DNA from: a virus
Lineage: Duplodnaviria; Heunggongvirae; Uroviricota; Caudoviricetes
IMG/VR virus record: IMGVR_UViG_2713896773_000006
Span: 1-37,546 of that record
Reading direction: 5' to 3' (one strand)
Length of the DNA stretch: 37,546 bases
Of the stretch, positions 34,181 to 34,528 are shown piece by piece (the stretch's first letter is position 1; each line of letters begins with the position of its first letter). Below the pieces are notes generated by a model. It did not search any database. It saw nothing but the letters and a program-made list of their open reading frames with translations, and was not told where the DNA came from. The position numbers were made by a program, and so were the translations under genes.

Positions 34181-34468
34181 GCTCTATTACGCAATTAAAA
34201 TTTCTCCAAGTATACTGACTTTTAGTTAATGATAATATAGTTATGTGTAACTGATGAAACAAAACTGAGGCGCACAAAGCTTTGCACTGGATTGCAAGGC
34301 TTTGTGCTCTTCTGTGGATGTGTGGCTACATGTTTGAAGATCGTTGTGCCGTATTTGTGACATACACATGACAACATCATGCATCAGCTTTCTGTTTGTG
34401 CCATCAACTATAGCTTAGTGAATGCGGTTAATGCTTGCTAAAACAGATAGTTATGATTGGTGCTACAG

Positions 34469-34514
34469 ATTCGTAATGCGAAGGTCGTAGGTTCGACTCC
34501 TATTATCGGCACCA
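34469..34514 (+). other. attP-like core: 46-nt 3' portion of tRNA-Thr (thrW-type)
   Basis: ATTCGTAATGCGAAGGTCGTAGGTTCGACTCCTATTATCGGCACCA matches the 3' part of E. coli/Salmonella tRNA-Thr(CGU) (recalled); upstream bases do not continue the tRNA. Phage genes flank both sides. Confidence 0.75.
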
Positions 34515-34528
34515 TTTAAATCAATAAG

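Follow-up and report, generated by a model that had tools for sequence, protein, structure and literature searches.

Near its right end, the stretch of viral DNA analysed here (37,546 nt, called the window throughout) carries a piece of a tRNA-Thr gene with phage genes on both sides. The question is whether this site is the attP of one phage or the seam between two prophages. An earlier note took it for an intact attP within a single genome in phage order, whose end and start might join as a circle, and predicted a thrW-type tRNA-Thr gene as the integration target. Its description of the site is sound. The 46-nt segment at 34469-34514 is the 3' end of thrW, as judged by ARAGORN and by published att sites (PMC3636060), and Pfam and DNA matches agree that the tailspike and acyltransferase genes lie to its left and int and xis to its right. 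The note was also right that a solitary integrated prophage would not show the acyltransferase gene, the core and int in one contiguous stretch.

By exact-protein look-up, the window is the entire contig LDYI01000017.1 of assembly GCA_001309485.1, from E. coli AW1.3. This strain was isolated from beef, and ABySS assembled its genome from 100-nt Illumina reads into 184 contigs (PMC4563881). As a draft contig from a bacterial isolate, the window is not virion DNA, one of the forms proposed in the earlier note; a tandem insertion, also listed there, agrees with the results given below.

The segment, hereafter the core (ATTCGTAATGCGAAGGTCGTAGGTTCGACTCCTATTATCGGCACCA), is identical at 46 of 46 positions to the last 46 nt of the 76-nt thrW gene for tRNA-Thr(CGU), the reference being the ARAGORN call that adjoins proA in an E. 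coli chromosome locus. An exact match of this length is not due to chance, and the same 46 nt have been published as the attP, attL and attR core of SfI, SfII, SfV, SfX and P22 (PMC3636060). ARAGORN and Rfam detected no complete tRNA at this position in the window, so that the core represents only the 3' part of the tRNA gene. Apart from a chance sub-threshold miRNA match on a neighbouring hairpin, Rfam returned nothing at the site. The core lies in the intergenic region between oacB and int, which spans exactly 34181-34528, and the stop codon of int follows 15 nt past the core. The exact Int protein of the window adjoins proA in ten of ten places among the matches listed, and ARAGORN confirmed thrW between proA and this Int in the one place scanned. 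With the identity of the core and the position of the same Int beside proA and thrW, the predicted target is confirmed as thrW. No host gene, which the earlier note would have taken as evidence against its reading if found on one side of the tRNA fragment, was seen anywhere in the window. The features of the site and its flanks are listed in Table 1.

Table 1. Features of the window around the att core and at the contig ends. Prophages A and B are named after the preferred reading of the site, a tandem insertion; X and V are the two types of att site described in the text.
Feature	Position	Strand	Remarks
Ea22-like early-left gene, 5' part, prophage A	1-474	-	cut by contig end
Tailspike gene, prophage A	31180-32940	+	Pfam Head_binding, E 1.7e-65; Sf101 tail protein within 98.4% match
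oacB-type O-antigen O-acyltransferase gene, cargo at right end of prophage A	32987-34180	-	Pfam Acyl_transf_3
P arm, SfX/HK75 type (type X), with oacB upstream region	34181-34468	.	read as attR arm of prophage A
15-bp hairpin, terminator-like on both strands	34272-34307	.	-32 kcal/mol, z -5.7; T-rich tails
TGTGCC[GA]T motifs (two), putative arm-type sites of type X Int	34345-34352, 34397-34404	+	
att core, 46 nt	34469-34514	+	3' end of thrW tRNA-Thr(CGU)
P' arm, SfV/P22 type (type V)	34515-34600	.	overlaps 3' end of int; read as attL arm of prophage B
TGGGACA and TGGGACC motifs on P' arm	34563-34569, 34574-34580		offsets +49 and +60
Type V tyrosine integrase gene (int), prophage B	34529-35692	-	Pfam Phage_integrase, E 3e-48
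Excisionase gene (xis), prophage B	35569-36003	-	Pfam HTH_17; annotated xis in SfIV, SfV and SfI under 99% match
Three early-left genes (YfdT-like, DUF551, YfdR-like 5'-deoxynucleotidase), prophage B	35919-37140	-	
yfdQ/DUF2303 gene, 3' third, prophage B	37241-37546	-	cut by contig end

The two flanks of the core come from different kinds of phages, a P22-like podovirus module on the left and an SfIV/SfV myovirus-like one on the right. Homology to SfIV, SfV, SfII and SfI (97-99.7%) sets in precisely with the first base of the core (34469) and runs to the end of the window; that to phage L also begins there, and for SfV and SfII the onset at the core was seen in megablast hits. Over these last 3.08 kb (34469-37546), identity to the myoviruses SfIV and SfV is 99.3%, through the last base of the window. 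The P' arm shows a single difference from SfIV in its first 140 nt, and Int is 99-100% identical in amino acids to that of SfI and SfIV, 90% to that of phage L and 55% to that of HK75. The three early-left genes are 99.3% identical to SfIV p30-p32, their names being backed by Pfam and by the RefSeq names in strain 81EVA. The truncated product at the contig end shows 100% identity to the C-terminal 101 aa of SfIVp33, and of the 269 positions of the DUF2303 profile it covers only 176-269. In other genomes, the exact Int is usually followed by xis, by genes for proteins of 101, 120 and 178 aa, by DUF2303 and YfdP genes, with SfV-like immunity genes coming next. Since this Int and the genes downstream recur beside proA, the window ends on the right with what is the usual left end of a widespread family of SfV-like prophages.

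On the left, the window from position 1 to about 34312 is a mosaic podovirus genome of the P22/Sf6/Sf101 kind, with the order early-left, immunity, replication, nin, lysis, packaging, head, ejection proteins, tailspike and oacB. The oacB gene is 98.4% identical in DNA to that of Shigella phage Sf101. The likeness to Sf101 (92-98% up to 34312) comprises the P22-like virion module, the tailspike and oacB; Sf101 differs in having another integrase and integrating at sbcB by a 13-bp attP that has no thrW core (PMC4159516). The tailspike may truly start at 31228; with either start, its exact protein had no record in the exact-protein look-up. The product of the gene cut by the left contig end (158 aa) is 76% identical over 88 aligned residues to a part of the N-terminal half of Bas106_0027, which diverges past the matching part into sequence unrelated to the window. 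Neighbouring genes in relatives carry Pfam Ead_Ea22, and the source annotation likewise has a gene touching the contig end.

Close to the core, the left flank changes its relatives. Homology to the free phages HK75, SfX and their kin (96%) extends from 34252 or 34306 to 34468 and through the core, and then falls to about 70-77% in int. The stretch 34306-34468 is 95-96% identical to HK75, HK446, HK542, mEp213, mEp043, mEpX2 and ECP1, free phages with another integrase that is annotated as SfX-like, and to the SfX att record. Its identity to the attR of a solitary prophage, that of E. coli 13C1065T, is 100%. In this arm-site region, no homology to SfIV, SfI or P22 was detected; within the P arm, the shared hairpin element at 34251-34304 alone matches these phages, at 81-83%.

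The relatives of the two halves can be told apart by short motifs on the arms of their att sites. In type V sites (SfI, SfIV and phage L), TGGGAC[ACG] stands at -60, +49 and +60 from the core, and in L also at -125. In type X sites (HK75, mEp213, ECP1, HK446, HK542 and NRZ14408 phage_14408_1), TGTGCC[GA]T stands at -124, -72, +49 and +60. All nine free phages scanned for the motifs are homotypic, with the same motif on both arms and in keeping with the type of their integrase. The site in the window is of the mixed type X/V. Its P arm has only TGTGCC[GA]T, at the same -124 and -72 as in the six type X phages, these being the sole occurrences in the 37.5-kb window, and its P' arm has only TGGGAC, at the same +49 and +60 as in SfI, SfIV and L. 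No TGGGAC site was found on the P arm; with X motifs only, this arm would leave the adjacent integrase without a cognate site there. That integrase is the only one in the window and is of type V; a type X int is absent from the window.

From their position and their co-variation with the integrase type, TGTGCC[GA]T and TGGGAC can be regarded as putative arm-type sites of Int. Whole-window counts of the motifs show no enrichment over shuffles; the signal is one of position and co-variation rather than number. A point that was counted against the tandem reading is that TGTGCC and TGGGAC differ at only two of six positions, and given this small difference, some cross-recognition between them may occur. 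The two integrases are 55% identical overall and 60% in their first 70 aa, the arm-binding domain if the layout of lambda Int applies.

Set beside complete attP sites, the site thus matches each type on one side. With the attP of P22, L, SfI, SfII, SfIV and SfV (type V), it shares an identical core, a P' arm that is likewise identical and has its TGGGAC motifs at +49 and +60, and an Int of 90-100% identity. Their P arm, shorter by about 89 nt and with TGGGACG at -60, is absent here. With the attP of SfX, HK75, HK446, HK542, mEp213, mEpX2, ECP1 and the NRZ14408 phage (type X, also called the 'CP4-6 type'), it shares the core and a P arm of 95-100% identity with TGTGCC[GA]T, but their P' arm carries TGTGCC and their Int is 55% identical to that of the window. 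Of a P22/SfV-type thrW module, the related Int, Xis and P' arm are all present; the type X int that stands beside type X arms in an SfX/HK75-type module is missing. Judged against the attP of a single lambda-type phage, the site has a core equal to attB and an adjoining tyrosine integrase; sites on both arms that would be cognate to it are lacking, as are arms that lie on one closed genome.

The distribution of this arm combination, denoted P(X)-core-P'(V), was surveyed with a probe of 261 nt spanning both arms (34340-34600), counting matches of at least 80% coverage. The probe had no match in 50,697 phage records and was found in 48 of 5,426 complete E. coli genomes, with 100% identity over all 261 nt in finished chromosomes such as those of E89 and 81EVA. 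In all three genomes that were fully inspected (81EVA, ES9 and E89), the junction is the middle of two tandem prophages at thrW, in the order proA-thrW-P'(X)-intX...A...P(X)-core-P'(V)-intV...B, and both the outer attL (thrW-P'-intA) and the outer attR are present. In 81EVA, A is an intact P22-like prophage that ends in tailspike and acyltransferase genes, followed by intV, xis, yfdT and the rest of an SfV-like myovirus prophage. In ES9 and E89, A is a partly deleted P22-like prophage with gtrABC, and the order intX-xis-...-Ea8.5-Ea22-like-...-DUF2737 in ES9 matches the left end of the window. A partial view of PSS-04 shows the same junction between the remnants of two prophages. The NRZ14408 phage record provides the contrasting case of a genuine attP in a P22-like phage with acetyltransferase cargo, the order there being tailspike-acetyltransferase-P(X)-core-P'(X)-intX. 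A gapped exact pattern for the joint between oacB and the P arm had no match in viral, metagenome and genome contigs.

These results imply that the site is very probably the attR of a prophage A fused, via the 46-nt core, to the attL of a prophage B, the two lying in tandem at thrW. What would be looked for at such a junction is found: relatedness switches at the core, the flanks belong to different phages, and the structure occurs in chromosomes rather than in virion genomes. That the site is the intact attP of one genome in phage order is not supported, because the arms are heterotypic, the switch falls at the core and the combination is missing from all 50,697 phage records.

Some findings were nevertheless counted against the tandem reading. 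The outer junctions, that is, thrW-intX on one side and the rest of B on the other, lie beyond the window. Moreover, the window has about the length of one P22-like genome and a single pair of int and xis, as a single recombinant phage would. Such a phage would have acquired an SfV-type P'-int-xis-yfd module and retained an SfX-type P arm, possibly after two tandem prophages had recombined homologously in their early-left regions, and the site would be its genuine attP. In AW1.3, the phage would exist either as a circle, excised or replicating, or as two copies of itself lysogenised in tandem, with a short gap between yfdQ and the Ea22-like gene assembled as a separate repeat contig. The order Ea22-[gap]-yfdQ-yfdR-yfdT-xis-int would then be that of a natural early-left operon, and the association of the oacB cargo with several integration modules suggests that module swapping is common. 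This explanation is improbable. Besides the absence of the arm combination from the phage records, all free phages checked have arm motifs that match their integrase type, and the P arm of the window offers no TGGGAC to the Int beside it. The switch falls exactly at the core, as expected for site-specific and not for homologous recombination, and the sequence comes from the draft of a bacterial isolate, in which the majority structure gets assembled.

The ends of the window also bear on this alternative. No terminal direct repeat of at least 8 nt was found (the longest length tested being 200 nt), and the last 600 nt have no 12-mer in common with the first 3 kb. A 32-nt sequence joining end to start had no match in IMG/VR. 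With a 300-nt query of this kind, the joint was never covered in the 5,426 complete E. coli genomes; the query matched part-way in 2,724 of them, at up to four places per genome, and in many of these the last 150 nt match genes for a 'YfdQ family protein'. The contig ends truncate two unrelated genes, and a circle with a direct join of end to start is unsupported. The end and the start thus do not close into the circle that the earlier note had envisaged. Both ends lie in genes that recur across prophages (yfdQ/DUF2303 and Ead_Ea22), which explains why the assembly broke there, and the sequence of a gap between them may be on another contig.

The open reading frame across the end-to-start join is in frame, which has a chance of one in three; this was counted against the tandem reading and in favour of a recombinant phage. 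As a real gene, the joined frame would be a chimera, Ea22-like in its N-terminal part and YfdQ in its C-terminal part. This candidate was rejected, as both homologs continue differently, and the frame is treated as a coincidence. For a recombinant phage, a direct join would furthermore cut DUF2303 down to its last third.

It is quite improbable that P(X)-core-P'(V) serves as the working attP of a single recombinant oacB phage. If it did, an SfV/P22-type Int would build its intasome on an SfX-type P arm, where TGTGCC stands instead of TGGGAC. The two families of thrW integrases would then be loose in their arm specificity, and tandem lysogeny would yield viable module-swapped phages.

A third explanation places the seam in the assembly. 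The core is repeated at every att junction of the locus, and ABySS was run on 100-nt reads with an unstated k, so an attR and an attL from separate copies of the core (for example thrW and a ptwF-like second core on the far side of another element) might have been misjoined through the 46 nt. Such an artefact is highly improbable. The identical 261-nt junction in the finished chromosomes of E89 and 81EVA argues for a structure that is real in nature. When a repeat is left unresolved, a de Bruijn assembler as a rule ends the contig there instead of joining across it. With a k greater than 46, single k-mers span the junction.

According to the tandem reading, A would be a P22-like prophage carrying oacB and type X att sites (window 1-34514), B would be an SfV/SfII/SfIV-like prophage (window 34469-37546), and the site between them would have the structure P(X)-core-P'(V). 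Two origins can be envisaged. With B already resident, the type X phage A may have entered the intact thrW at the attL of B; with A resident first, B may have entered the attR core of A. The proposed route of insertion follows from the likeness to an experiment with SfI and SfX. We infer the order of insertion as well as the location of int-X and thrW to the left of the contig.

The junction could serve two excision reactions. As attR, it would form a pair with the attL thrW-P'(X)-intX, predicted a few kb past the left contig end, from which A would be excised by Int-X and Xis-X. As attL, it would pair with the P(V)-core-B' of prophage B far to the right, and B would be excised by the adjacent Int-V and Xis. 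This double function is modelled on the lambda paradigm for heterobivalent tyrosine integrases. Since only the core need be common, each prophage could leave alone. The 46-nt piece itself would not be an expressed tRNA, and the intact thrW would stand at the leftmost junction. The likeness to lambda attP, attL and attR extends to the heterobivalent tyrosine integrase, the core with its arm-type sites and a terminator- or sib-like hairpin past the P arm; as in lambda, attL and attR would each retain one arm. The target is different here, being the 3' end of a tRNA gene.

There is an experimental precedent for such an arrangement. SfI and SfX integrate in tandem at thrW, where SfI enters the SfX attL, and the sequence of the seam between them has been determined (PMC3306764). 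In this double lysogen of S. flexneri serotype 1d, the tandem also lies at thrW, between proA and yaiC. It likewise consists of an SfX-type and an SfI/SfV-type serotype-converting phage that meet in the 46-nt core, with the cargo on one side and int on the other. The order is different. There, the type V phage SfI is next to thrW and the junction reads P(V)-core-P'(X)-intX, whereas here the type X prophage is predicted next to thrW and the junction reads P(X)-core-P'(V)-intV. The two cases also differ in host and cargo, namely Shigella with gtr and E. coli with oacB. The core, thrW as target, the type V module, the SfX/HK75 arm, Sf101 oacB and tandem lysogeny at thrW are therefore already known; only this mosaic prophage and the stacking order in an E. 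coli food isolate are new.

For genome scanning, the site demonstrates that cargo, tRNA core and int in one stretch do not by themselves signify a phage that is free or excised. An attP can be told from a tandem seam by a comparison of its two arms, which also avoids merging two prophages into one predicted phage. The window adds a probable E. coli case from the proA-thrW hotspot, in which a P22-like prophage with oacB is stacked with an SfV-like one. In most S. flexneri strains, oacB lies beside remnants of gtr prophages at the proA-thrW locus. As this is the same locus, tandem insertion would be a simple route by which oacB arrived there.

The two families of thrW-specific integrases appear to use identical P' offsets (+49 and +60) and similar P offsets with different motifs, and may thus provide a natural case for the study of arm specificity. 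The second half-site of the type X P arm reads TGTGAC, which is one change away from either motif.

The OacB protein of the window (397 aa) occurs in identical form in P22-like prophages at the bio/ybhB (att-lambda) site and beside an argW-type integrase near yfdC; none of the ten places among the matches listed is at thrW. With bio/ybhB, argW, the sbcB site of Sf101 and the present locus, the tailspike-oacB end travels with at least four integration modules.

Elsewhere in the left part of the window, tRNA-Asn(GUU) and tRNA-Thr(UGU) genes lie in tandem at 13550-13705, the only tRNAs found in the window by ARAGORN and Rfam. The same pair has been reported at the same position in SfI, and one or both genes in Sf6, ST64T, PS3 and p21 (PMC3636060). 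Going by gene order, the reading frame before the pair sits at the position of a Q antiterminator and is a putative one. The replication module includes an unusually long reading frame for a DnaB-type helicase (7697-10177; 821-826 aa; Pfam DnaB and DnaB_C in the source annotation).

The hairpin lies between the start of oacB and the arm motifs. It is conserved in both types of att site, in Sf101 and in siphoviruses with neither gtr nor oac, and in type V sites 89 nt fewer separate it from the core. The phage L record labels the equivalent element a terminator, and the placement of the hairpin beyond the P arm recalls sib/tI of lambda. In a tandem array, readthrough from int of prophage B would meet the hairpin copy of prophage A.

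Other cores at this locus show traces of change. In 81EVA, the thrW at the outer attL (locus positions 10555-10600) has two differences from the core of the window, which are paired in the T-stem; a G-C pair replaces U-A there, a compensated change, and the internal junction of that strain keeps the standard core. In 13C1065T, a second type X P' arm without an integrase lies downstream of the attR core of the solitary prophage (locus positions 9164-9330). It has TGTGCC motifs at +48 and +59, is followed by a truncated LysR gene, and has the appearance of a remnant left by an earlier insertion at this core.
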